Part shown: piece by piece, positions 550 through 35,714 of the stretch
How the letters are laid out: every line of letters starts with the position of its first letter
Position numbering within the stretch: the first letter of the stretch is position 1
Program-made: the position numbers and the translations under genes
Source of the DNA: Planctomycetes bacterium DG_23
Lineage (GTDB): Bacteria; Planctomycetota; DG-23
DNA length: 35,733 bases
Assembly (NCBI GenBank): GCA_001302825.1
Contig: LIZR01000005.1
Location: forward strand, 1 to 35,733
Reading direction: 5' to 3'
The notes under the pieces: generated by a model
Seen by the model: the letters and a program-made list of their open reading frames with translations, nothing else
What the model was told of the DNA's origin: nothing
Database searches by the model: none

Positions 550-1539
550 ATGGCAGCCAGGATTATTGACGGCGAAAAGATAGCGGCGCAGATTAAAGAG
601 GGCCTCAGAAAAGATGTAGAGGAACTCGCTGGCAAGGGCAAATGTCCGCATATAGCGGGAGTTATGGTGGGCGAAAATCCGGGGGTGCGGGTGTATGTGC
701 GCAGTCAGGAGCGGGCCTGCGAGGAACTGGGGATAAAATATACCCTGGACCAGCACCCGGATACTATGACTGAAGAAGCCCTCGCCGGCCGCATCCAGGA
801 ACTAAACGGCGACCCGGAGATAACCGGCATCATTCTTTTGATGCCTGTGCCTGCCGGAATAAATGCCCGGCGCATCCAGGCGCAGATAAACCCGGATAAG
901 GATGTAGAAGGAATGAACCCGCAGAATTTAGGCAGGCTCATTTACGGGACGCCCCTGCTCGGCCCCTGCACCGCGGTGGGGGCGGTGGAACTGCTCAAAA
1001 CCACAGGCGTTCCTATCGAAGGCGCTGAGGCCGTGGTTGTTGGCCATAGCGAGATTGTGGGAAAACCCATTGCCGTTTTGCTTCTCGGCCTTAATGCCAC
1101 GACCCATATATGCCATATTTTTACCAAGGATTTGGCGTACCATACCAAGAATGCGGACATTTTGTTCATTGCTGCGGGAAAGTCCGGGGCCGTCTGGCAG
1201 CGCTACTGGAAGGAGAAGAGAAAGTATAATGAGAACCCTGAGGGCGAGCCGCCGGCCTTGCCGGATTTGTCGCCACTCATTAAGGCCGATATGCTGAAAC
1301 CCGGGGTGGTCATCATAGATGTGGCCATAAACCGTATTCCGGAGGCCCTGGATGAAAGTGGCGACCCGGTCTTGAGCGAAAAGGGAAGGCCCCAGATGAA
1401 GACCACCGGCGATGTGGATTTTGAAGGGGCAAAGGAAATAGCCTCTTGGATTACCCCTGTTCCCGGTGGAGTGGGCCCGATGACCGTGGCCATGCTCTTG
1501 AAAAATGCGGTAGAGGCGGCGAAGATGGCGGTTGGCTAA
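550..1539 (+). CDS. folD: Bifunctional 5,10-methylene-THF dehydrogenase / methenyl-THF cyclohydrolase (FolD), long form
   Basis: ATG 550 preceded by AAAGGAGG (535-542, 7-nt spacing). MAARIIDGEKIAAQIKE, GVMVGENPGVRVYVRSQERACEELGI, NPDKDVEGMNP, VVVGHSEIVGKP and ITPVPGGVGPMTVAML are canonical FolD motifs. 329 aa versus about 285 for typical FolD. Confidence 0.93.
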   Translation: MAARIIDGEKIAAQIKEGLRKDVEELAGKGKCPHIAGVMVGENPGVRVYVRSQERACEELGIKYTLDQHPDTMTEEALAGRIQELNGDPEITGIILLMPVPAGINARRIQAQINPDKDVEGMNPQNLGRLIYGTPLLGPCTAVGAVELLKTTGVPIEGAEAVVVGHSEIVGKPIAVLLLGLNATTHICHIFTKDLAYHTKNADILFIAAGKSGAVWQRYWKEKRKYNENPEGEPPALPDLSPLIKADMLKPGVVIIDVAINRIPEALDESGDPVLSEKGRPQMKTTGDVDFEGAKEIASWITPVPGGVGPMTVAMLLKNAVEAAKMAVG

Positions 1540-2730: not shown

Positions 2731-3455
2731 TTTTCACTCCTTTCGTCAAACTTCGGTTTTTTCTTGAAAAGGCCAATCATCAAGGCCAAAAGAACCTTAA
2801 TCATATAATAAACTGACCGGCCCGGCGTGATGGAAGAGGCCCCGGCCAACCGAGGGCTCATAGTTACCGGGATTTCGGTAATCTTAAATCCGGCGCGATG
2901 AAGAAGAACGATGGATTCGGGCTCAGGATAATCGGTAGGATAAATGCTGGCGAGGAATTCAATAGTTCTTACGCACACGGCCCGAAAGCCAGAGGTGACA
3001 TCTCTAATCCTCTGACGGATAATTAGAGAGATGAAAGTGCTTAGGATCAACATCCCTAAACGGCGCACCAGAGGTGCCGGATACGAGGTTTTATTTCCGA
3101 AAAATCTGGAGCCAATAACCATATCCGCCTGGTGATGGGACAGGGAATTAGTTAGTTTAGCGATTTCGCTGGCCGGATGCTGCCCGTCGGCATCAACCTG
3201 GACGACAACAGAATAATCCATTTCTCGGGCGAATTTGAAGCCGGTTTGTTGGGCAACTCCTATGCCCATATTATAGGGCAGGTCTATCACTGCTGCGCCT
3301 TCGGCCTTGGCCTTATGGGAGGTGTGGTCGATGGAACCATCGTTAACTACTAAAATATGGACATCAGGTAGATGTGATTTTATATCCCGCACCACTTTCG
3401 CTATGGTTTGCTCTTCGTTATAAGCAGGAATTATGACCAGAGTTTTGGCAGACAT
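2727..3455 (-). CDS. GT2 (GT-A fold) glycosyltransferase, polyprenyl-phosphate sugar synthase type (DPM1/GtrB/ArnC-like)
   Basis: LVIIPAYNEEQTI, VVNDGSIDHT and VVQVDADGQH (DxD), followed by a C-terminal hydrophobic helix. ATG at 3455 overlaps the stop of the upstream GT-C gene (TGATG). The ORF-track start at 3458 is an in-frame GTG one codon upstream. Confidence 0.85.
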   Translation of the reverse strand: MSAKTLVIIPAYNEEQTIAKVVRDIKSHLPDVHILVVNDGSIDHTSHKAKAEGAAVIDLPYNMGIGVAQQTGFKFAREMDYSVVVQVDADGQHPASEIAKLTNSLSHHQADMVIGSRFFGNKTSYPAPLVRRLGMLILSTFISLIIRQRIRDVTSGFRAVCVRTIEFLASIYPTDYPEPESIVLLHRAGFKITEIPVTMSPRLAGASSITPGRSVYYMIKVLLALMIGLFKKKPKFDERSEK

Positions 3456-5071
3456 CACTGACTTCCAGGCTTTGAATTATCTTGAGCAGGATATTTCAAC
3501 CTGTAAATCTTAGCATGCTCGTCGATTTTTGCAAGTGGATGGGAAACGAGTTCAAGGTCTTGAGGATTTAACTTATTCCAAAAATCGGGGCATATTCTGT
3601 CAAACTTCCTATCCACGATTAGGAAATCCGCTCCAGCGGACCGGGCCTTAAGCATAATATCTTCGTAACTACCCCACGTAACCCTGTGGAAGCCAGCGCC
3701 GGCATAAAAGGCCTCCTGTGGCTTTTGGGAGGCGATGGTGAATTCCGCCAGTCCAGAATTCTCTTTGAGCCAGCGTCCAACTTCTTTCTGCCAGGCCCGG
3801 TGTGCACGAATAGGACGAAGCCCTCTGGGCAAGCAGGCACCAAGGATAGCCAGTATAATTATACTGCTTGTCAGAAAAGACCAGTGCCTGGCCGAAGCCT
3901 TCCCCTGCACCGGCCCCCATTCTGAAAATCGTTCATCAATTTCCCAGAACCCCACCGCTGCCCACGATAAGGCCATAGGGATGAAGGCGTAAAGATATCT
4001 ATCGTTTATGGGAATGTTTGCCGAGAACGCCAGGTATCTGGGCATGATGAAGGAAAGGATATAGGCTTCACCGAGTCTAAAGCGCGGCAGTCTTTTTCTT
4101 TTAATGAGGCCAAAGGGAAGAAAAATGAGAAAGGCAGGATAGTATGACTTGGCCAGGCCCTGCAGGGCATCGGGAAAGTTCAGTAAAAGCCTTCGGGGCA
4201 TTCTTTGAGCAATTTTTAGATAAGGGGCCAGGCCCGGCTCGTAAAAGTCTTCCCCATATAAAAAATTAGCCTTTACCCTGTTGGTGCGGATTCTTATCAG
4301 TCTCGCTGGCGATTGATGGAATAAGACCATAAAAATTGAAGCGAAGATTACAAGAAGACCCAGGCAGATGGCACTGGCAGCGAGTTTCCAGCGCCACTCC
4401 TTTCTTATAGTGCGAATCCGGTAAAGCCAGAGCCAGCCCGTTACCACGAATGTAGGCAGAAGACCTTCCCACCGGGTCATAGATATAAGCAGCAAAAGAA
4501 TGCCGATAGGGACGAAAAGGAAGACCTTTTTTCTCTGGATACCAACCCAGGCGAGATAGGCGATGGAAGTCAAAAGGAAAAAGTAGGTGGCTTCGGTAAG
4601 GACCTCGGCAGAGGCCTGCAGGAGATAGGGATGGATGATGTAAAAGAAAACGGTTAAGGCAGCGACCTTTCGGTCAAAGATATCCTTTACCAAGAAAAAA
4701 AGCGGAAAGACCGTTAAAGACCCCAGAAAGAGTGAAACCATCCTGCCGGAGAGTTCAACATCGCCGAATATATACGAGAAAAGGCGAGTAAGGATAGGCA
4801 AGAAAGGAGGATAGTGTGGATAGTAGGGAGAAGGCATTTTGGGCAGGGCCTTAGCAAGCCAGAGATAAGCACAGCCATCTGCAGCAACTCCTTTAGCCGT
4901 CAGAACCATAAAGAGCTTTAGGGCGAAAGCAGCTATGAAGAGAACCAGGACTATCTTGCGGTTTCTAAAAAAAGCCCCTAATTTGCAGCAGGAGTTTCCT
5001 GCCTCGGCTTGTGCATCAGGAATTGCCATAGTCCTTGAACTTTCGCTGGTTAACTTCAAGGTAAAAAGCAC
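3455..5071 (-). CDS. GT-C fold membrane glycosyltransferase (ArnT/PMT-like), paralog 1
   Basis: More than 10 hydrophobic segments followed by a soluble C-terminal domain. It shares long identical blocks with the next gene. The start is uncertain: GTG 5071 (GGTGGA 6 nt upstream) or ATG 5029 (MAIPDAQ...). Confidence 0.75.
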   Translation of the reverse strand: MLFTLKLTSESSRTMAIPDAQAEAGNSCCKLGAFFRNRKIVLVLFIAAFALKLFMVLTAKGVAADGCAYLWLAKALPKMPSPYYPHYPPFLPILTRLFSYIFGDVELSGRMVSLFLGSLTVFPLFFLVKDIFDRKVAALTVFFYIIHPYLLQASAEVLTEATYFFLLTSIAYLAWVGIQRKKVFLFVPIGILLLLISMTRWEGLLPTFVVTGWLWLYRIRTIRKEWRWKLAASAICLGLLVIFASIFMVLFHQSPARLIRIRTNRVKANFLYGEDFYEPGLAPYLKIAQRMPRRLLLNFPDALQGLAKSYYPAFLIFLPFGLIKRKRLPRFRLGEAYILSFIMPRYLAFSANIPINDRYLYAFIPMALSWAAVGFWEIDERFSEWGPVQGKASARHWSFLTSSIIILAILGACLPRGLRPIRAHRAWQKEVGRWLKENSGLAEFTIASQKPQEAFYAGAGFHRVTWGSYEDIMLKARSAGADFLIVDRKFDRICPDFWNKLNPQDLELVSHPLAKIDEHAKIYRLKYPAQDNSKPGSQ

Positions 5072-5145
5072 CTGTTTTCCACCACTTTCGCTATGGTTTG
5101 CTCTTCGTTATAAGCAGGAATTATGACCAGAGTTTTGGCAGACAT
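5056..5145 (-). pseudogene. Fossil 5' fragment of the GT2 gene (22 codons) left by the tandem duplication
   Basis: 5080-5145 is base-for-base identical to 3390-3455, which is codons 1-22 of GT2 (MSAKTLVIIPAYNEEQTIAKVV). Seven unrelated codons and TGA at 5056-5058 follow. No catalytic domain follows. The TGATG overlap with the upstream stop is retained. Confidence 0.85.
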
Positions 5146-6704
5146 CACTGACTTCCAGGATTTGAACTATCTTGAGCAGGATATTTCAACCTGTAAATCT
5201 TAGCATGCTCGTCGATTTTTGCAAGTGGATGGGAAACGAGTTCAAGATCCTCGGGACTAAACTTGCTCCAGAAATCCGGACATATTTCATCAAACTTGCT
5301 GTCAACGATTAGAAAATCTACCCTGGCCGCCCTGGCCTCACGCATAATATTTTCATAGGTCCCCGGCTTAAGTTGTTGGAAGCCAGCGCCGGCATAAAAG
5401 GCCTCCTGCGGCTTTCGGGAGGCGATGGTGAATTCCTTTGTTCCGGAATTTTCTTTGAGCCAGCGCCCAATTTCCTTCTGCCAGGCCCGGTGTGCTCTAA
5501 TAGGACGAAGCCCTTTGGGCAAGCAAGCACCAAGGATAGCAACCATAATCAAACTGCTTATAAGGAATGACCAGCGCCTGGCCGAGAGAGTACCTCGGCT
5601 TAGCGCCCGTTCTGAAACTCTTTCATTTATCTCCCAGAAGCCCACCGCAGCCCAGGATAGAGCCATAGGGATGAAGGCGTATAGATATCTATCAGTTACC
5701 GGTATCAGTGCCGCTATTACCGGTATCCTGACCATAAGGAAGGAAAGGATATAGACTTCACCAACTCTAAAGCCGGGCAGCCGTTTTCTCCTGATTAGGC
5801 CAAAGGGAAGGAGAATGAGAAAGGCAGGATAATATGACTTGGCCAGCCGCCGCAAGGTGCGGGGCAAGTTTCGCACGAATCTAAGCGGCATTCTCTGAGC
5901 AATTTTTAGATAAGGTCCCAGGCCCGGCTCGTAAAGGTCTTCCCCGCGCAAGAAAACATTCTTTACGTTGATGAGGCGGTTTTCTATCAGTCTCGCTGGC
6001 GATTGATAGAATAAGACCATAAAAATTGAAGCCAAGATCACAAAAAGACCCAGGCAGATAGCAGTGGCAGTGAGTTTCCAGCGCCACTCCGTCTTGATTC
6101 TCCGCCCGTGCCAAAACCACACCCAGCCTATTACCACGAAGGTTGGCAGAATTCCTTCCCAGCGGGTCAGAGATATAAGAGGCAGAAGGATACCGATAGG
6201 GACGAAAAAAAGCGCCTTTTTCTTATGTACAGCCACCCAGGCGAGATAGGCGGTGGAGGTTAAGAGGAAAAAGTAGGTGGCCTCAGTGAGGGTCTCTGCG
6301 GAGGCCTGTAGTAGATAGGGATGAATGATGTAAAAGAAAACGGTCAGAACTGCGACCTTGTGGTCGAAGATATCTTTCACTAAGAAGAAAAGCGGAAAAA
6401 CAGTCAGAGAGCCCAGGAAGAGCGAGACCATCCTGCCGGAGAGTTCAACATCGCTGAATATGTAGGTAACAGCACGAATGAGGAAGGGGAACAGGGGAGG
6501 AAGGAATAGGTCTGGCCTCTGCGGAGAAACCATTTTGGGGAGGGCTTGTGAAAGCCAGAGATACCCACAGCCATCTTTGGCCACTCCTTTGGCGGTGAAA
6601 ACGGAGATGAGCCGAAGCCCCAAGGCGAGCAAAAAAAGCACCAGAAGTATGCGCCCTCTGTGGTCTTCTTCTGAAAATATTTTTGAAAAATGTCTCCTTA
6701 GCAT
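5145..6704 (-). CDS. GT-C fold membrane glycosyltransferase (ArnT/PMT-like), paralog 2
   Basis: 519 aa, ATG 6704 with GAAGG 8 nt upstream. Identical to paralog 1 over blocks such as DVELSGRMVSLFLGSLTVFPLFFLVKDIF and the C-terminus DLELVSHPLAKIDEHAKIYRLKYPAQD. The N-terminal ~45 aa are unrelated. Confidence 0.8.
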   Translation of the reverse strand: MLRRHFSKIFSEEDHRGRILLVLFLLALGLRLISVFTAKGVAKDGCGYLWLSQALPKMVSPQRPDLFLPPLFPFLIRAVTYIFSDVELSGRMVSLFLGSLTVFPLFFLVKDIFDHKVAVLTVFFYIIHPYLLQASAETLTEATYFFLLTSTAYLAWVAVHKKKALFFVPIGILLPLISLTRWEGILPTFVVIGWVWFWHGRRIKTEWRWKLTATAICLGLFVILASIFMVLFYQSPARLIENRLINVKNVFLRGEDLYEPGLGPYLKIAQRMPLRFVRNLPRTLRRLAKSYYPAFLILLPFGLIRRKRLPGFRVGEVYILSFLMVRIPVIAALIPVTDRYLYAFIPMALSWAAVGFWEINERVSERALSRGTLSARRWSFLISSLIMVAILGACLPKGLRPIRAHRAWQKEIGRWLKENSGTKEFTIASRKPQEAFYAGAGFQQLKPGTYENIMREARAARVDFLIVDSKFDEICPDFWSKFSPEDLELVSHPLAKIDEHAKIYRLKYPAQDSSNPGSQ

Positions 6705-26673: not shown

Positions 26674-27753
26674 TTGAAGGAAGATAAAAGGGAAATGGTC
26701 TATGAGGCCCTCAGGTTTAAGGAGCCTACCCTTCTTCCTTACCATATAGATGTCCTTGCGCCGGTGGCCGAGAAACTGAAGACCCATTTCGCCACAGACG
26801 ATATTGATGCGGCTATGGGGAATTTCCTGCGCTGGCTGAGTATGGAGAAACAGTGGCAGGAACTACCAGGCGGCCCGGGCAGGCTACCCATCCCCGCCGA
26901 AGGCGGGCAGGCGGCCCGGTCGCCTCGGCGACACGCCCGTATGGGCGGCAGGGCCCTGGATGAATTCGCCGTTATCTGGCGAACAACCGGCGTCAATCGT
27001 GGCTATGTGGTGGAGCATCCCTTAAAGGAACCCAGCCTCAAAGGTTATGAATTCCCTCAATTTGATTATGAGAAGAAACTCGGCTATTTTCCTTTTGCGG
27101 TTGAAAGAGGCAAGGGTCACTTTCTGGTGGCCTGGGTGGGCGACCTGTGGGAGAGGGCGCATTTCCTGCGGGGCCTGGACCATCTCCTGAGTGACCTTTT
27201 GCTCCATCCGGCCTTTGTTCACGAACTTCTCCAGCGGCTGGAGGAGATTATCTTGAGGAATATGGATGCTATGAGCCGCTATGTTGTGGACGCTTTTTTC
27301 CTGAGCGATGATTACGGCCTTCAGGAGAACTTGATGATGCGCCCAGCGACCTGGCGGGAGTTTATAAAGCCGCATCTGGTGAATATCTTCCGAAAAGGCC
27401 ACCAGTTGGGCAGGATTTGTTTTCTTCATTCTTGCGGAAATGTAAGCGAGATAGTGCCGGATTTAATTGAAGTGGGCCTTGATGTGCTTCATCCCATCCA
27501 GCCGGAGGCGATGGACATCGCCGGGTTGAAGAAAGAGTATGGAAGCGATTTAACTTTTTATGGTGGCCTGGGTACGCAACAAGTTTTAGTGCGGGGAAGC
27601 CCAGGAGAAGTGAGGGAAGAAGTGAAAAGGCTTGCTGAAGTGATGGGGCAGGGGGGTGGATATATTCTGGGGCCGGGGATTTCCATCCAGCACGATGTGC
27701 CTTTGGGTAACCTCCTGGCCTTAATTGAAGAAGCCAGCCTTCTGGCCAAGTAG
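26674..27753 (+). CDS. Uroporphyrinogen-decarboxylase (URO-D) family protein, MtaA/CmuA-like methyltransferase candidate, carrying an in-frame GC-rich insertion
   Basis: LSDDYG, ICFLHSCGNV, VLHPIQPEAMD, TFYGGLGTQ and GGGYILGPGISIQHDVP are URO-D-fold motifs. The start is either TTG 26674 or ATG 26695. Residues around PGGPGRLPIPAEGGQAARSPRRHARMGGR are encoded by repeat copy A. Confidence 0.75.
   Translation: MKEDKREMVYEALRFKEPTLLPYHIDVLAPVAEKLKTHFATDDIDAAMGNFLRWLSMEKQWQELPGGPGRLPIPAEGGQAARSPRRHARMGGRALDEFAVIWRTTGVNRGYVVEHPLKEPSLKGYEFPQFDYEKKLGYFPFAVERGKGHFLVAWVGDLWERAHFLRGLDHLLSDLLLHPAFVHELLQRLEEIILRNMDAMSRYVVDAFFLSDDYGLQENLMMRPATWREFIKPHLVNIFRKGHQLGRICFLHSCGNVSEIVPDLIEVGLDVLHPIQPEAMDIAGLKKEYGSDLTFYGGLGTQQVLVRGSPGEVREEVKRLAEVMGQGGGYILGPGISIQHDVPLGNLLALIEEASLLAK
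26887..26953 (+). repeat. GC-rich multi-hairpin REP-like element, copy A (inside a CDS, in frame)
   Basis: Contains hairpins CCGCC-GAA-GGCGG, GTCGCC-TC-GGCGAC and CGCCC-GTAT-GGGCG. By my hand alignment, about 57 of 68 aligned positions are identical to the reverse complement of 27782-27849. Confidence 0.75.
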
Positions 27754-27781
27754 CCCGTCAAGGGCCGGGCTATGCGGCCGT

Positions 27782-27849
27782 CCCTGCCGGCCGCTACGGG
27801 CGGGTCGCCCTGGCGACCAGGCCGCCTGTCCGCCTTCGGCGGATATGGG
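27782..27849 (-). repeat. GC-rich multi-hairpin REP-like element, copy B (between convergent genes, inverted relative to copy A)
   Basis: Same three-hairpin layout as copy A. It is flanked by CCTGCCGG / CCGGCAGG terminal inverted repeats (27851-27858 and 27783-27790 on the plus strand) and lies in the 128-bp gap between the stops at 27753 (+) and 27882 (-). Confidence 0.75.
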
Positions 27850-27881
27850 CCGGCAGGCGGGCTTCCGTTTGACGGATAGCC

Positions 27882-29807
27882 TCAAGGCAGCACGGTTATG
27901 GATAACAGACCGTCTTCATCGCGCACCTGGGTAGCCGAGATGTAGGTCAGATGTTGCTGCAAGACTTCCAGGCTGGGCAGAGGAACCTCCTCGCCAGTGG
28001 CTGCAGAGATTGTCGCAATGAGCGTATAGACTTGATCGAGAAGTTGGCCCAGGTCAGCATAAAAAAGTACCAGAGGCTGCGGTGGGAAACCGGCGGTGGC
28101 TTCCCGGAAAAGGGCATTTTCCTGAATGGTTGGCGCCGGCTCGGTCAGGCTGCGCAGGGCGGACTTCAAGAGGATATTGCTGGTGGAGAAGAAAAAGAAG
28201 TCGTCGGTCACCACATAGGCCGGGCCATCTATAGGCAGAGGTGGTGCCTCGGCCTCGCCCGGGGGCATAGCCATAAATGCCGGCGGTAAGAAAACATTTA
28301 TCCTGTAGCCCAGATAGTCCTGTTCTTGCACAGGAAACATCATCAAGGGAGGAATAGGGAGTTGTCTTATTTTGGAGAGGGCATCTGCAAATCTGCCGCT
28401 ATTTTCCAGGGCGCAAAAGACCACCACTGCCACGGTTCCTTCAGCGCCGTAAGCACTTTTGGGTACCACAAATAGACCGGCTTCATTACCCATAGAGCCT
28501 ATTAGGTCCTCCTCCAGGCTAAAATCAAATTCCGCTTCATACTGGGCCAATAGGGCTTGAAACTGGCCGAAATGCTCCATACCAGGTTCTGCGGACCGGG
28601 CCTCCAGTTGTGCCATTATCTGTTTCCAGTATTCTTGGTAATCCATAAATACATAAGAGTAGCAAATTGCTGCGGTGGGGGTGAAGCTCAGGGATCTTGC
28701 TGGAGGTATTTCTGATGGAAGTATCTTCATACTACCCGTAGGCATACCCGGTGCGTAGGTATAGGAGGTAAGTAGCGTTTTTCCCGGAGCAAGAGTTATT
28801 CCACCACCCATGGCCTTAATGGAGGCCTCTTCCATACTTGTGAATGAATCTCTCATTTGATTTTTAGGGCCGAAGGTGGCTCCGGGAGGTTGTGGAGGGC
28901 CGAATTCTCGGAAGAATTTCTCGCTTATTTCTTCTATGGGAAGGTCGTATAAGGGCTCACTATTAACGAAGAACACGGCGTCCGGTTTCTCGCCAACTTT
29001 GCTCGTGACATATCTATAAGTGGGGTTTTGGGAAAGCGGCGCCTGGAGTTGGGTTTTATAGCTGGCAATCATTCGCTCCAGCGCTTCCACGCCATAGGTG
29101 GCTATGAAAAGATTATCCATAAAGGCATAGGCCACGGCGACGGACGGATCTTCCTTATCCTCCAAGATATTGATGGCCACGCCGCGGCTTTCGGCGGTTT
29201 TGCGGTAAGGGGCGTTTTCCGCTGCGCTATCGAGGGTGCGTTCAATTATTTCCTCCAGGGCGGCTTGTTTTTCCCCTATGTCCGCAATGATGGCTAAGTA
29301 AGGGACGACTTTGGTTTCGCGAATTTCCACCTCTTTTTCAGGAAGTTTGCCGGTTTCAAAATCGAAATTTTCGAAGTCCACCGCATCCCAATCTACTTCC
29401 ATCTTTTTTTCGGTAGAGGTTTCAGTTTTTAGGTCAAAAAGGACAAAAGCCATCTCGCCCACGAACATCTCGGAGATTTCCTTGAAGGAAATGCCTATTT
29501 CCAGTTCCGCTTTTTGAAGGCCCTGGCGAGCCTCCTCCACGGTACTCTGGAGGAGATTTTGTATCTCCTCTTCCTCCCAGAGTTTATAGAGGTTGGTTTC
29601 CTTGAAATTTTCTTTTGTTTGGCTAATGTTTCTTACCGAGACATAGACCAGTGCAGTATCCGGGATAAAGGTGTCAAACGAGTCCGTTTCAGCAAGGGCT
29701 TGGGGCAGGGCCAGAATTAAAGTGAAAGTTAAAAGAAAAGCCACAAGCCAAGCCCTCTTGCCGCTTCGTTTGCCGAAAAACAGAGCGAGACCCCCGTCCT
29801 CTTTCAT
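27882..29807 (-). CDS. Secreted or membrane-anchored 641-aa protein of unknown function (possibly DUF3352-like)
   Basis: N-terminal signal/anchor (AWLVAFLLTFTLILALPQALA). No catalytic motif recognised. Its ATG at 29807 overlaps the protease stop by 1 nt (TAATG), implying translational coupling. The DUF3352 resemblance is recollection only. Confidence 0.6.
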   Translation of the reverse strand: MKEDGGLALFFGKRSGKRAWLVAFLLTFTLILALPQALAETDSFDTFIPDTALVYVSVRNISQTKENFKETNLYKLWEEEEIQNLLQSTVEEARQGLQKAELEIGISFKEISEMFVGEMAFVLFDLKTETSTEKKMEVDWDAVDFENFDFETGKLPEKEVEIRETKVVPYLAIIADIGEKQAALEEIIERTLDSAAENAPYRKTAESRGVAINILEDKEDPSVAVAYAFMDNLFIATYGVEALERMIASYKTQLQAPLSQNPTYRYVTSKVGEKPDAVFFVNSEPLYDLPIEEISEKFFREFGPPQPPGATFGPKNQMRDSFTSMEEASIKAMGGGITLAPGKTLLTSYTYAPGMPTGSMKILPSEIPPARSLSFTPTAAICYSYVFMDYQEYWKQIMAQLEARSAEPGMEHFGQFQALLAQYEAEFDFSLEEDLIGSMGNEAGLFVVPKSAYGAEGTVAVVVFCALENSGRFADALSKIRQLPIPPLMMFPVQEQDYLGYRINVFLPPAFMAMPPGEAEAPPLPIDGPAYVVTDDFFFFSTSNILLKSALRSLTEPAPTIQENALFREATAGFPPQPLVLFYADLGQLLDQVYTLIATISAATGEEVPLPSLEVLQQHLTYISATQVRDEDGLLSITVLP

Positions 29808-33374: not shown

Positions 33375-33378
33375 GACT

Positions 33379-33765
33379 TTGAGTGGCGCTTCGCATCCTG
33401 AGGATGCTTCCCTCGGCCCTGACCCGTACGGGGAAGGGCAGAATCGGAAGGGCGCTTCGCGTCCTGCCTGGCCGACCAGGGAGGGCGCGGAATTTTTTTG
33501 CGAGAAGTTAAAGGTTTCCTGGCAAGGAGCGCCTCAGGAAGGTGAGACTTTCACCTGGCGCGGCAAGGAATATGAAATTCGCACCGTTCTCACCTCCTGG
33601 CGAGAATGGCGCACACCCGCTACCGTTGCCCATAAATCCTGGCGCACCCGTCGGCATCGAAACTTCTACCATATCCGCACTCATAGCGGCGAGACCTTTG
33701 AAATCTTCCTCGACCGCACCAATAAAGCAAAACCAGAGTGGTTCCTCCGAAAAAGGCTCTCCTAA
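33379..33765 (+). CDS. Small W/R-rich protein (128 aa as drawn), possibly DUF6504-like; coding status and start uncertain
   Basis: The only in-frame ATG/GTG/TTG in the whole ORF is TTG 33379, 7 nt after AGGAG (33367-33371) and 5 nt after the FG-GAP stop. The C-terminal two thirds (FTWRGKEYEIRTVLTSWREW...SWRTRRHRNFYHIRTHSGETFEIFLDRTNKAKPEWFLRK) look like a real small domain. The N-terminal 40 codons run through GC-rich hairpins and a terminator-like structure. Confidence 0.45.
   Translation: MSGASHPEDASLGPDPYGEGQNRKGASRPAWPTREGAEFFCEKLKVSWQGAPQEGETFTWRGKEYEIRTVLTSWREWRTPATVAHKSWRTRRHRNFYHIRTHSGETFEIFLDRTNKAKPEWFLRKRLS
33458..33499 (+). terminator. Strong intrinsic-terminator-like hairpin plus T7 tract downstream of the FG-GAP gene (inside the small ORF)
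   Basis: The 5' arm 33458-33471 (CGCGTCCTGCCTGG) pairs with the 3' arm 33476-33489 (CCAGGGAGGGCGCG): 13 of 14 positions pair (one of them a G-U wobble, one G-G mismatch), loop CCGA. GAA and TTTTTTT (33493-33499) follow. Confidence 0.7.
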
Positions 33766-33779
33766 CCCGCTAATTTCTA

Positions 33780-33808
33780 TTGACAAAATGGGCATCCGCT
33801 GATATGTT
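33780..33808 (+). promoter_or_regulatory. Near-consensus sigma70-like promoter upstream of the TPR gene
   Basis: TTGACA (33780-33785), a 17-nt spacer, then TATGTT (33803-33808). The leader to ATG 33989 would be about 175 nt. Confidence 0.55.
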
Positions 33809-33988
33809 TTGGATAAATCAGGCTACTCTGCAGCCAAGGATTGAAGTATTTTATGTGTTTTCTTCAATTCCGTGTTTCAGTGATTTTTTTGTGTAGTTAG
33901 TGCAGTATTTTTTCTCTGCGATTTTTTTGATTACTGAAAGCGTGCTTGCCGGCAGGGCCGTAAGGCTGCCGGGCTGAAAGGCTGTAAG

Positions 33989-34655: not shown

Positions 34656-35714
34656 TCAGTACTTTCCGTATTTCCTCACCAGTTCCATAGTTCGCTCATA
34701 CTGCTGGAAACTCACATTTTTGGGAACCGAGTGGTCGGAGTGATAGATATACCCCCCGCCGGGCATAGCCACCTCAAATTTCGTCTTTATCTCCTCTTCT
34801 ATGGCTGATGGGTCGGGACTCGCCATCTTTCGCACATCTATCCCGCCCATAAAGGCCATTTCCTTCCCGTATTCTGGCTTGAGTTCCTTGAGGTCCATCC
34901 CGGCCTTCACCTCCAGGGGCTGGAGGCAGTTAAATCCGGCCTCAATCAGATGGGGAATTAACCCTTTAACGCAGCCGCAGGAATGCAGGATAATGGGCAT
35001 ATCGTGGGAATGAAAGAAGTCGCAAATCATCTTGTGCGTATCAAATAAGACCTCGCGGTAGGTCCGGGGAGAAAATAGCGAAGAGTTTCTATAACCCATA
35101 TCATCGTAAAGAAAGGCCCCGTCAAACTGAAAGTCCTTCTCAATCATCATCTGGGCCATCGCCACCAGAAGTCGGGCGTGGGTCTGGAACATCTCCCGCA
35201 CCCAATCAGGCTCGGTTACCATAAGCATCAGAAGTTCTTCGCTTCTTACATAATTCTGAAAAAGGTCGTAACCCACGGCGGCATTGAATGTGATGAAGTA
35301 ACCCTCCTCACGAGCCCGACGAAAGTTTCGAAGCCCGCTGGCCCAATCCACCCGCGTGTAGTCAGGCTCTAAACGCTCCTTTATCTTCGCCCAGTCCTCC
35401 TTTGTTTTTATGGGCCAGTCTATAACCTCCGGCGTGGTGGAACGGTCGCGATGATTCCGCCTCATACCCCCGTAAGCCGTGGTCTCGATTATATACTCTT
35501 CGTCCTTCTCCACCGTCCTCACCGGAAACCTCGGGCTGAGGTCAGCGCCGAACCCCCAAAGTTCATAGCCAAAATATTCCCTTACCGGAATTTGCGGCGG
35601 AAGGCCTTCATTATGCCACCTGTTTATGGTTGCCGACCAGGGACTGTCCTGAATGGGCACCCGGTCCGGCTCCTTGTGCTCTAAGGCCATCCGCACCCTT
35701 TCTCGCGAAGTCAT
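34656..35714 (-). CDS. Uroporphyrinogen-decarboxylase (URO-D) family protein, MtaA/CmuA-like methyltransferase candidate (second, divergent paralog)
   Basis: ATG 35714 with AAGGAGG upstream. MTSRERVRMALEHKEPDRVPI, LYDDMGY, IILHSCGCV, CLQPLEVKAGMD, MGGIDV and GGGYIYHSDHSVP are URO-D-fold motifs. Confidence 0.8.
   Translation of the reverse strand: MTSRERVRMALEHKEPDRVPIQDSPWSATINRWHNEGLPPQIPVREYFGYELWGFGADLSPRFPVRTVEKDEEYIIETTAYGGMRRNHRDRSTTPEVIDWPIKTKEDWAKIKERLEPDYTRVDWASGLRNFRRAREEGYFITFNAAVGYDLFQNYVRSEELLMLMVTEPDWVREMFQTHARLLVAMAQMMIEKDFQFDGAFLYDDMGYRNSSLFSPRTYREVLFDTHKMICDFFHSHDMPIILHSCGCVKGLIPHLIEAGFNCLQPLEVKAGMDLKELKPEYGKEMAFMGGIDVRKMASPDPSAIEEEIKTKFEVAMPGGGYIYHSDHSVPKNVSFQQYERTMELVRKYGKY

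Follow-up and report, generated by a model that had tools for sequence, protein, structure and literature searches.

Bacterial MITEs that duplicate a TA dinucleotide at their target include the Correia elements of Neisseria and RUP of pneumococcus. Part of this background is covered by a review (PMC10969869), which also records in-frame intragenic palindromic repeats from the Rickettsia palindromic elements (RPEs) and other MITEs. In the account given there, the RPEs (Ogata et al. 2000 Science) are small palindromic repeats that lie both between genes and in frame within unrelated housekeeping genes; RPE-1 is described as ~150 bp long, AT-richer and confined to Rickettsia, and the RPE families as encoding a conserved peptide in one frame. 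Further, GTAG/CGTC-tagged intragenic REPs (Di Nocera et al. 2013; PMC3733652) occur in many phyla and provide inserts encoding 20-30 residues, and REP families have been reported in Planctomycetes and Verrucomicrobia (PMC3733652).

The element described here was found in a 35,733-nt stretch of DNA from Planctomycetes bacterium DG_23 (the window). The window is ordinary chromosome, carrying folD, MTHFR, four PMT_2 glycosyltransferase genes, nrdD with its activase gene, smc, and genes for an old-yellow-enzyme-type reductase, an AIR-synthase-like protein, a URO-D pair, a trypsin-like protease and an FG-GAP protein; the nearest named relatives of its NrdD belong to Candidatus Brocadia, Candidatus Jettenia and other Planctomycetota (72-75% identity). 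A repeat search returned, as the longest inverted repeat of the window, two 60-nt arms at 26887-26946 and 27790-27849 with 85% complementarity. By alignment, the repeat consists of copy A (core 26887-26954, forward strand, in frame inside a URO-D-family gene; nhmmer envelope 26877-26956) and copy B (core 27782-27849, reverse strand), almost exactly the match of 26887-26953 to 27782-27849 that the preliminary description had proposed. The two copies are inverted, 843 nt apart and flank one gene; each has a G+C content of 76%, compared to 51% for the window, and at most one stop codon summed over all six frames. Sub-patterns of 22-24 nt (CCGCCGAAGGCGGNCAGGCGGCC and GGTCGCCNNGGCGACNCGCCCGTA) match the window at copies A and B alone when three mismatches are allowed, and none of 100 dinucleotide-preserving shuffles matches either of them.

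The three hairpins ascribed to the element in the preliminary description are all found in copy A: hairpin 1 at 26893-26907 (CCCGCC-GAA-GGCGGG), hairpin 2 at 26919-26932 (GTCGC-CTCG-GCGAC) and hairpin 3 at 26934-26947 (CGCCC-GTAT-GGGCG), all read on the forward strand. Likewise, the terminal inverted repeat attributed to copy B is present as a perfect 10-bp pair on the forward strand, with CCTGCCGGCC at 27783-27792 and GGCCGGCAGG at 27848-27857. A weaker relative that had been suggested at 33380-33490 does not belong to the family, since the stretch has no nhmmer match and consists of a strong hairpin followed by T7, which is an ordinary intrinsic terminator after the FG-GAP gene.

Two scans were carried out for copies elsewhere. 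The first compared a 22-nt core with one genome per species and returned nine matches in genomes of 63-70% G+C, from GC-rich Proteobacteria or Dehalococcoidia; these are attributed to chance, because the genomes are GC-rich and nothing beyond the pattern itself is similar. The second covered metagenome contigs, using the stems of hairpins 1 and 2 as the pattern CCGCCNNNGGCGGN{11,13}GTCGCCNNGGCGAC, and identified 68 loci. When these were ranked against copies A and B, six (L048, L025, L022, L078, L076 and L067) scored far above the others, all on contigs of 52-55% G+C. L048 and L025 are the same locus as L081, recovered from three samples at 99.4-99.9% identity, so that the element occupies seven distinct loci, namely A, B and five extra sites. 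All locus counts are lower bounds, as the metagenome scan missed contigs that contain a match to the pattern (L082 and L088, for example).

The separation between these sites and the background is wide. In particular, an nhmmer profile of the core recovers family members with E-values of 1e-16 to 1e-20, compared to 8e-4 or worse for everything else, and in BLAST comparisons the element is the sole sequence that the family contigs share with the window. Because the search pattern itself specified the stems of hairpins 1 and 2, these do not vary among the five extra loci; outside that pattern, the GAA loop, the linker CAGGCGGC and the CCGTA of hairpin 3 are also invariant or nearly so. Pairwise local alignments place the shared core at columns 21-88 of alignment A4 (~68 nt), and for some pairs at columns 9-100 (up to ~92 nt); at copy B, homology to the L076 copy reaches position 27861. 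With the L081 and L078 copies, copy B shares 92-94% identity, compared to 76-85% with copy A, and it lies nearer to the family consensus than copy A does. Within ~46 kb of the window organism's contig there are two copies, the ~10 kb of extra flanking DNA yielding no further one, and searches of viral contigs and plasmids returned no match to the element. Overall, the check for further copies that had been proposed at the outset yielded, through the metagenome scan and nhmmer, five more distinct loci at unrelated positions, which together with the shuffles answers the concern that the similarity might lie within what GC-rich sequence gives by chance. Judged from these alignments, copies A and B clearly belong to a dispersed family.

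A secondary structure was evaluated on the ungapped alignment A4, where seven related sequences make the shuffle test indicative only. In the tested fold, hairpin 1 pairs columns 27-32 with 36-41; after it, columns 47-51 and 86-90 form a helix, and the region enclosed by this helix contains hairpin 2 (53-57 paired with 62-66) and hairpin 3 (68-72 paired with 77-81). Under this fold 91.8% of paired cells can pair, compared to 29-52% after the partners are slid by one to three columns. Double-sided changes occur at four pairs (27/41, 50/87, 68/81 and 72/77). For example, the closing pair of hairpin 1 (27/41) is U-A (T-A in the DNA) in four copies and C-G in three, while 50/87 appears as C-G, G-C, U-A and U-G, and a covariation score as high as the observed one was reached in none of 500 shuffles. 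This result owes nothing to the stems of hairpins 1 and 2, which are invariant by ascertainment. These patterns are indicative of four helices maintained through compensatory changes. Moreover, four copies have U-G at pair 51/86; such a pair can form on just one strand, a hint that the folding strand is the one written for copy A. Copy A alone folds no better than its own shuffles (z ~ -1), and Rfam 15 gave no match at gathering scores for the window and eleven related loci, with the hits of a relaxed search far below threshold. A tRNA-like cloverleaf was considered and rejected, as ARAGORN finds none and the loops are just 3-4 nt long.

The gene that hosts copy A (26695-27753, forward strand; longest ORF from a TTG at 26674) encodes a URO-D/MtaA-like TIM-barrel protein, and the ORF at 26674-27753 matches the Pfam URO-D family at 2e-22. 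Protein searches returned 1306 homologs at E <= 1e-10. In alignments of 20 and 59 sequences, 54 homologs with 47-54% identity do not have the segment encoded by copy A: they carry nine residues at the insertion site (e.g. ERVGENLER), compared to 34 in the window protein, a net gain of 25 residues (75 nt) that leaves the reading frame intact. An AlphaFold2 model built from the 59-sequence alignment has a mean pLDDT of 92.5 and a pTM of 0.90, and Foldseek groups it with MtaA-like methyltransferases and uroporphyrinogen decarboxylases. Two segments alone, residues 63-67 and 69-83, have a pLDDT under 50. Both belong to the stretch of residues 63-83 (RLPIPAEGGQAARSPRRHARM, counting from the ATG at 26695; forward strand, 26881-26943), which is coded by the element and sits between two strands. 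The 21 clearly element-coded residues are thus predicted to be disordered and to loop out at the barrel edge. The in-frame position of copy A, the absence of its segment from homologs and its standing as the sole low-confidence stretch of the model all agree with what the preliminary description had claimed or proposed to examine; its comparison with the paralog at 34656-35714 is uninformative, since that protein aligns only from residue 126 on and does not cover the insertion site.

Four nearer homologs (76-80% identity) contain a shorter insert at the same site, and the DNA of three was examined (L010, a 13-kb contig with 9.6 kb in synteny, L011 and L012). Their identity is 78.6% to the window and 87-89% to one another. 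They retain the left end of the element (...GCCAT) and, at the right, its final 17 nt (GTATGGGCGGCAGGGCC, the same in L010 and L011), and are without the 36 nt that span hairpin 1 and half of hairpin 2. The shortened copy was undetected by nhmmer in all three, and its homology to copy A is deduced from its position and the identical right end. The relatives differ freely in the sequence of the remnant loop (CASAIPVRVMGG, CASAIRDASMGG and CASAMRDACVGG). Outside the insert, dN/dS between the window gene and its relatives is 0.135-0.142, a level of purifying selection from which the gene appears to have been functional ever since the insertion. The shared remnant firmly places the arrival of copy A ahead of the divergence between the window lineage and three lineages of ~79% DNA identity, and together with the dN/dS of ~0.14 it marks the insertion as old and tolerated. 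The most economical account is a single insertion, followed by an in-frame deletion of 12 codons in the ancestor of the three relatives.

A second intragenic copy was identified at the L081 locus. When six-frame peptides of the element were compared to 5.8 billion proteins, the matches listed included only the URO-D-family protein itself (P0001) and P0121, a 420-residue polysaccharide-deacetylase/DUF2334-like protein. A HMMER search with P0121 returned 1724 homologs, none above 45% identity, and in most of them the alignment begins just past residue 60. The insert of P0121 (SGPYPPKAGRRPGRRGDPPVAAG) adds a net ~21 residues and is absent from all 11 aligned homologs; it is flanked upstream by a conserved N-terminal motif (LxL..P.WL) and downstream by the conserved body of the protein. 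With conserved protein sequence to either side of the insert, the element is truly within the P0121 coding sequence. P0121 reads the element one frame off copy A (YPPKAGRRPG... compared to PIPAEGGQAA...), and this difference in frame rules out selection for a particular peptide.

Copy B occupies a 128-nt gap (27754-27881) between the stop codons of the URO-D-family gene and a convergent DUF3352 gene (27882-29807, reverse strand), whose own stop bounds it. The placement between convergent stops (27753 and 27882) stands as first described, whereas the accompanying view of a classic terminator position does not: there is no T-run or terminator-like site at copy B, and its function as an intrinsic terminator was rejected on that ground. 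The orthologous gap measures 2 nt in L010, 2 nt in L011 and 13 nt in L012, and these empty sites firmly place copy B, by comparison of the gaps, in the window lineage only. In L012 the site reads GGGCCGGG-TA-ACC, compared to GGGCCGGGC-TA-[about 100 nt]-TA-GCC in the window; this one empty-site comparison, made across 22% divergence (78% identity), offers no more than a lead to a putative TA target duplication. The higher identity of copy B to the L081 and L078 copies than to copy A indicates that it is not a local duplicate of A. The arrangement of A and B was assembled independently in ENA ERZ27275847 and JGI 3300028917. In JGI 3300027893, from a 99.9% identical strain, copy A and the start of copy B are present and the contig ends inside copy B; contig breaks within repeats are common.

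Across the family, five copies are intergenic, in both orientations, and two lie inside coding sequence. In addition to copy B, the intergenic copies are located between murE and murF (L078), between an aldo-keto reductase gene and a superoxide dismutase gene (L067), upstream of an ECF sigma gene (L022) and downstream of a small ORF (L076). Their orientation to neighbouring genes is mixed, with sense and antisense copies in upstream, downstream and intragenic positions. The L022 copy shares a stop-to-stop frame with the ECF sigma gene and was considered as a third intragenic case; this was rejected, as the sigma domain begins ~20 residues past the element, which most likely lies upstream of the true start. 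Flanking inverted repeats were also rejected as a general feature of the family, because L081 alone is nominally unusual (8 of 500 shuffles). Pfam scans found no transposase genes in the window or among the genes of the fetched loci, which cover a small part of any genome.

How the element relates to described families depends on the feature compared. It resembles the RPEs, as far as the review describes them, in being both intergenic and in frame within genes, in adding a fold-compatible peptide, in having no known transposase and in persisting across species. In particular, the in-frame and intergenic repeat is absent from homologs of both the URO-D-family protein and P0121, and the AlphaFold2 model and the dN/dS of ~0.14 point to a fold-compatible loop in a functional gene. 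It differs from the same description in its core of ~68 nt, its 76% G+C, its host, which probably belongs to the Planctomycetota, and its two intragenic copies in two frames, and it has no sequence similarity to the RPEs presented there. With REPs and BIMEs it shares short GC-rich stem-loops (5-7-bp stems, 3-4-nt loops) joined in composite units, a location mostly downstream of genes or between convergent genes, intragenic copies that encode 20-30 residues, and a conserved GTA(G/T) motif. Each element contains three stem-loops of the REP kind (5-13 bp stem, short loop). REPs carry GTAG/CGTC as an unpaired terminal tag; here, GTA(G/T) is the loop of hairpin 3 (A4 columns 73-76) in all seven copies, and copy B alone can be read as GTA followed by a GCGGCCG/CGGCCGC stem. 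Moreover, REP/BIME units are inverted dimers of one REP, whereas this element has three distinct hairpins in fixed order. REPs number tens to thousands of copies per genome, compared to two copies in ~46 kb and, as a lower bound, seven loci across metagenomes, and they accompany a RAYT (Y1 HUH transposase) flanked by repeats, compared to none among the genes of the window and the fetched loci, a small part of the genome.

The likeness to MITEs lies in a length of ~100 nt, the 10-bp terminal inverted repeat of copy B, the TA...TA there compared to a single TA in L012, and the long hairpin that the element forms when transcribed. It departs from MITEs in that the target duplication comes from one comparison and no IS630-like parent element is known. 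Further, terminal inverted repeats are not shared among the copies: copy B has CCTGCCGGCC/GGCCGGCAGG, L076 has CCTGCC/GGCAGG, and the ends of A, L081, L022, L078 and L067 differ. The element is therefore not assigned to any named family, though RPE- or REP-like in behaviour, as it has neither the strict REP tag nor MITE terminal repeats. It is read here as a new REP/MITE-like family that acts like the Rickettsia palindromic elements, the phenomenon itself having been described before in Rickettsia and other bacteria.

The explanation preferred with considerable confidence is that A and B are members of a dispersed, non-autonomous, GC-rich palindromic family, REP/BIME- or MITE-like, that would spread in trans. 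This supports the original proposal of a small mobile palindromic element tolerated as a surface loop, with mobility deduced from the distribution of copies. The element folds into hairpin 1 followed by a short helix enclosing hairpins 2 and 3, and would be mobilised by a transposase encoded elsewhere. The favoured candidate is an HUH tyrosine transposase (RAYT or IS200/IS605 type) that would recognise the hairpins: conservation is seen in the compensated hairpins and in GTA(G/T), and does not extend to inverted repeats at the ends. A TA-duplicating DDE enzyme would be less likely, though possible given the terminal repeat of copy B. Intragenic survival may owe to the scarcity of stops in all frames, a net length that is a multiple of three, and landing in a surface loop; from base composition, a 26-codon frame at 76% G+C is estimated to be free of stops with a chance of ~70%. 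Between convergent genes, the hairpins may shield the 3′ ends of mRNAs. No host function is required by the data, as copy B has no T-run and the relatives lack copy B.

Other readings must be weighed against this distribution. The conservation of four helices through compensatory changes, a U-G pair at 51/86 that implies a one-strand fold, and the probable transcription of copy B, between convergent genes, and of the L078 copy, between murE and murF, would all suit a functional structured RNA kept by selection (an mRNA 3′-end stabiliser or attenuator, or a protein-binding motif) in place of selfish mobile DNA. Such an RNA is nevertheless improbable, as Rfam offers no match at gathering scores, copies are found in sense and antisense orientation, upstream and downstream of genes as well as within them, copy B lacks a T-run, and three relatives manage without copy B and have lost half of copy A. 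The Gly/Pro/Arg-rich segment could instead be a selected protein feature, such as a binding or targeting loop, from which the DNA similarity would follow; the host gene is indeed under purifying selection and the loop is kept in four lineages. This is very unlikely when P0121 reads the same DNA in another frame, five loci are non-coding, the loop sequence varies freely among relatives and the segment is predicted to be disordered.

It is slighter still that A and B arose through a purely local event, a nearby inverted duplication or gene conversion with no mobile family behind it. The sole two copies in ~46 kb do flank one gene in inverted orientation, with 843 nt between them, but copy B has more identity with copies on unrelated contigs (92-94%) than with A (76-85%), five further loci exist, and copy A is older than the lineage split while copy B is younger. 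Least credible of all, and regarded as refuted, is the view that GC-rich sequence matched by chance or that the assembly is at fault: GC-rich hairpins are common and the 22-nt core does match nine unrelated GC-rich genomes by chance, yet none of the 100 shuffles gives two matches, nhmmer reaches E-values of 1e-16 to 1e-20, and the locus was assembled independently in ENA ERZ27275847, JGI 3300028917 and JGI 3300027893.

Beyond the preferred reading of a REP/BIME- or MITE-like family, a bolder version of it is tentatively put forward and rated rather doubtful, though less so than any of these rivals. The copies could represent a class of mobile DNA built from hairpins, hitherto undescribed and still active in Planctomycetota-like bacteria, having a four-helix one-strand fold and an unknown enzyme, without a RAYT-type tag or fixed terminal repeats, and seeding disordered Arg/Gly/Pro-rich loops in more than one frame.

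The locus presents three stages side by side: a full intragenic copy, a shortened copy in sister lineages, and a neighbouring site that is empty in some lineages and filled in another. It is a clean natural example of selfish palindromic DNA turning into protein sequence, in a free-living uncultured lineage and not in Rickettsia. There are also practical consequences, as such elements break metagenome assemblies (one contig ends in copy B) and the low-complexity loops they add can lead to wrong annotation and wrongly chosen start codons. If the element does represent a still active class, RPE-like seeding of protein loops would extend outside obligate intracellular bacteria.

An exact direct repeat is shared by copy A, the element copy lying in frame inside the URO-D-family gene, and its host flank. 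The 12-mer CAGGCGGCCCGG occurs in the window at 26867-26878, as the host flank immediately to the left of the copy, and again at 26907-26918, as the element's own linker; GGCGGCCCG is also present in the flank of the relatives that carry a shortened copy A at the same site. This repeat could have arisen by chance or by partial duplication, or it could point to a preferred target. A second, short unit is found in L022, a metagenome contig that carries the element at another site, where GGGCCCATAGGGGCCGCCCGTATGGTGCGG (~1340-1386, minus strand) adjoins a full copy at 1399-1474. Of the element, this unit reproduces the left end and hairpin 3 but lacks hairpins 1 and 2, and its similarity to the relatives' shortened copy A suggests that a short form of the element may recur.

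Some copies are flanked by inverted repeats of their own, equidistant from the element core. In particular, the copy in contig L081 has CTCATTAA/TTAATGAG at 1233-1240 and 1344-1351, 15 nt out on each side, which was equalled in 8 of 500 shuffles; copy B has CCGTCAA/TTGACGG at 27755-27761 and 27869-27875, 19-20 nt out, equalled in 55 of 500. These repeats hint that the element may have inserted into pre-existing palindromes, or they may be due to chance. In the 99.9% identical strain, contig L082 ends inside copy B (3966-4025) and its final 10 nt change to CCCGTATGGG, as though assembly had broken off at a repeat or hairpin.

Downstream of the FG-GAP gene, CGCGTCCTGCCTGGCCGACCAGGGAGGGCGCG followed by T7 (window 33440-33500) is a canonical intrinsic terminator. 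Two occurrences of the motif GGCGCTTCGC(A/G)TCCTG lie upstream of it. According to gene calls for L087 and L088, which are syntenic, the 33375-33988 gap holds a minus-strand DUF6504 gene and is thus convergent. Elsewhere in the window (3390-5902), in a row of four PMT_2 glycosyltransferase genes, two have 300-nt blocks in common, 1690 nt apart, whose 77-86% identity points to a fairly recent tandem gene duplication. In L066, an unrelated GC-rich contig, positions 1550-2390 hold a coding tandem array whose period is 66 nt (and 21 nt) and which is rich in AAGTGCCCGCCG (Lys-Cys-Pro-Pro).

The stems CCCGCC-NNN-GGCGGG and GGTCGCC-NN-GGCGACC also build other repeats in unrelated metagenome contigs with 56-68% G+C (L016, L019, L027, L037, L066, L071; L023, L032; L020, L034, L041, L042, L061; L050, L058, L062), where the enclosing outer stems differ. 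Rfam returned no match in the seven loci scanned among these contigs. L023 carries three copies of the GGTCGCC-NN-GGCGACC hairpin, and L034 has two along with a degenerate third; this hairpin may represent a REP-type module of wide occurrence.
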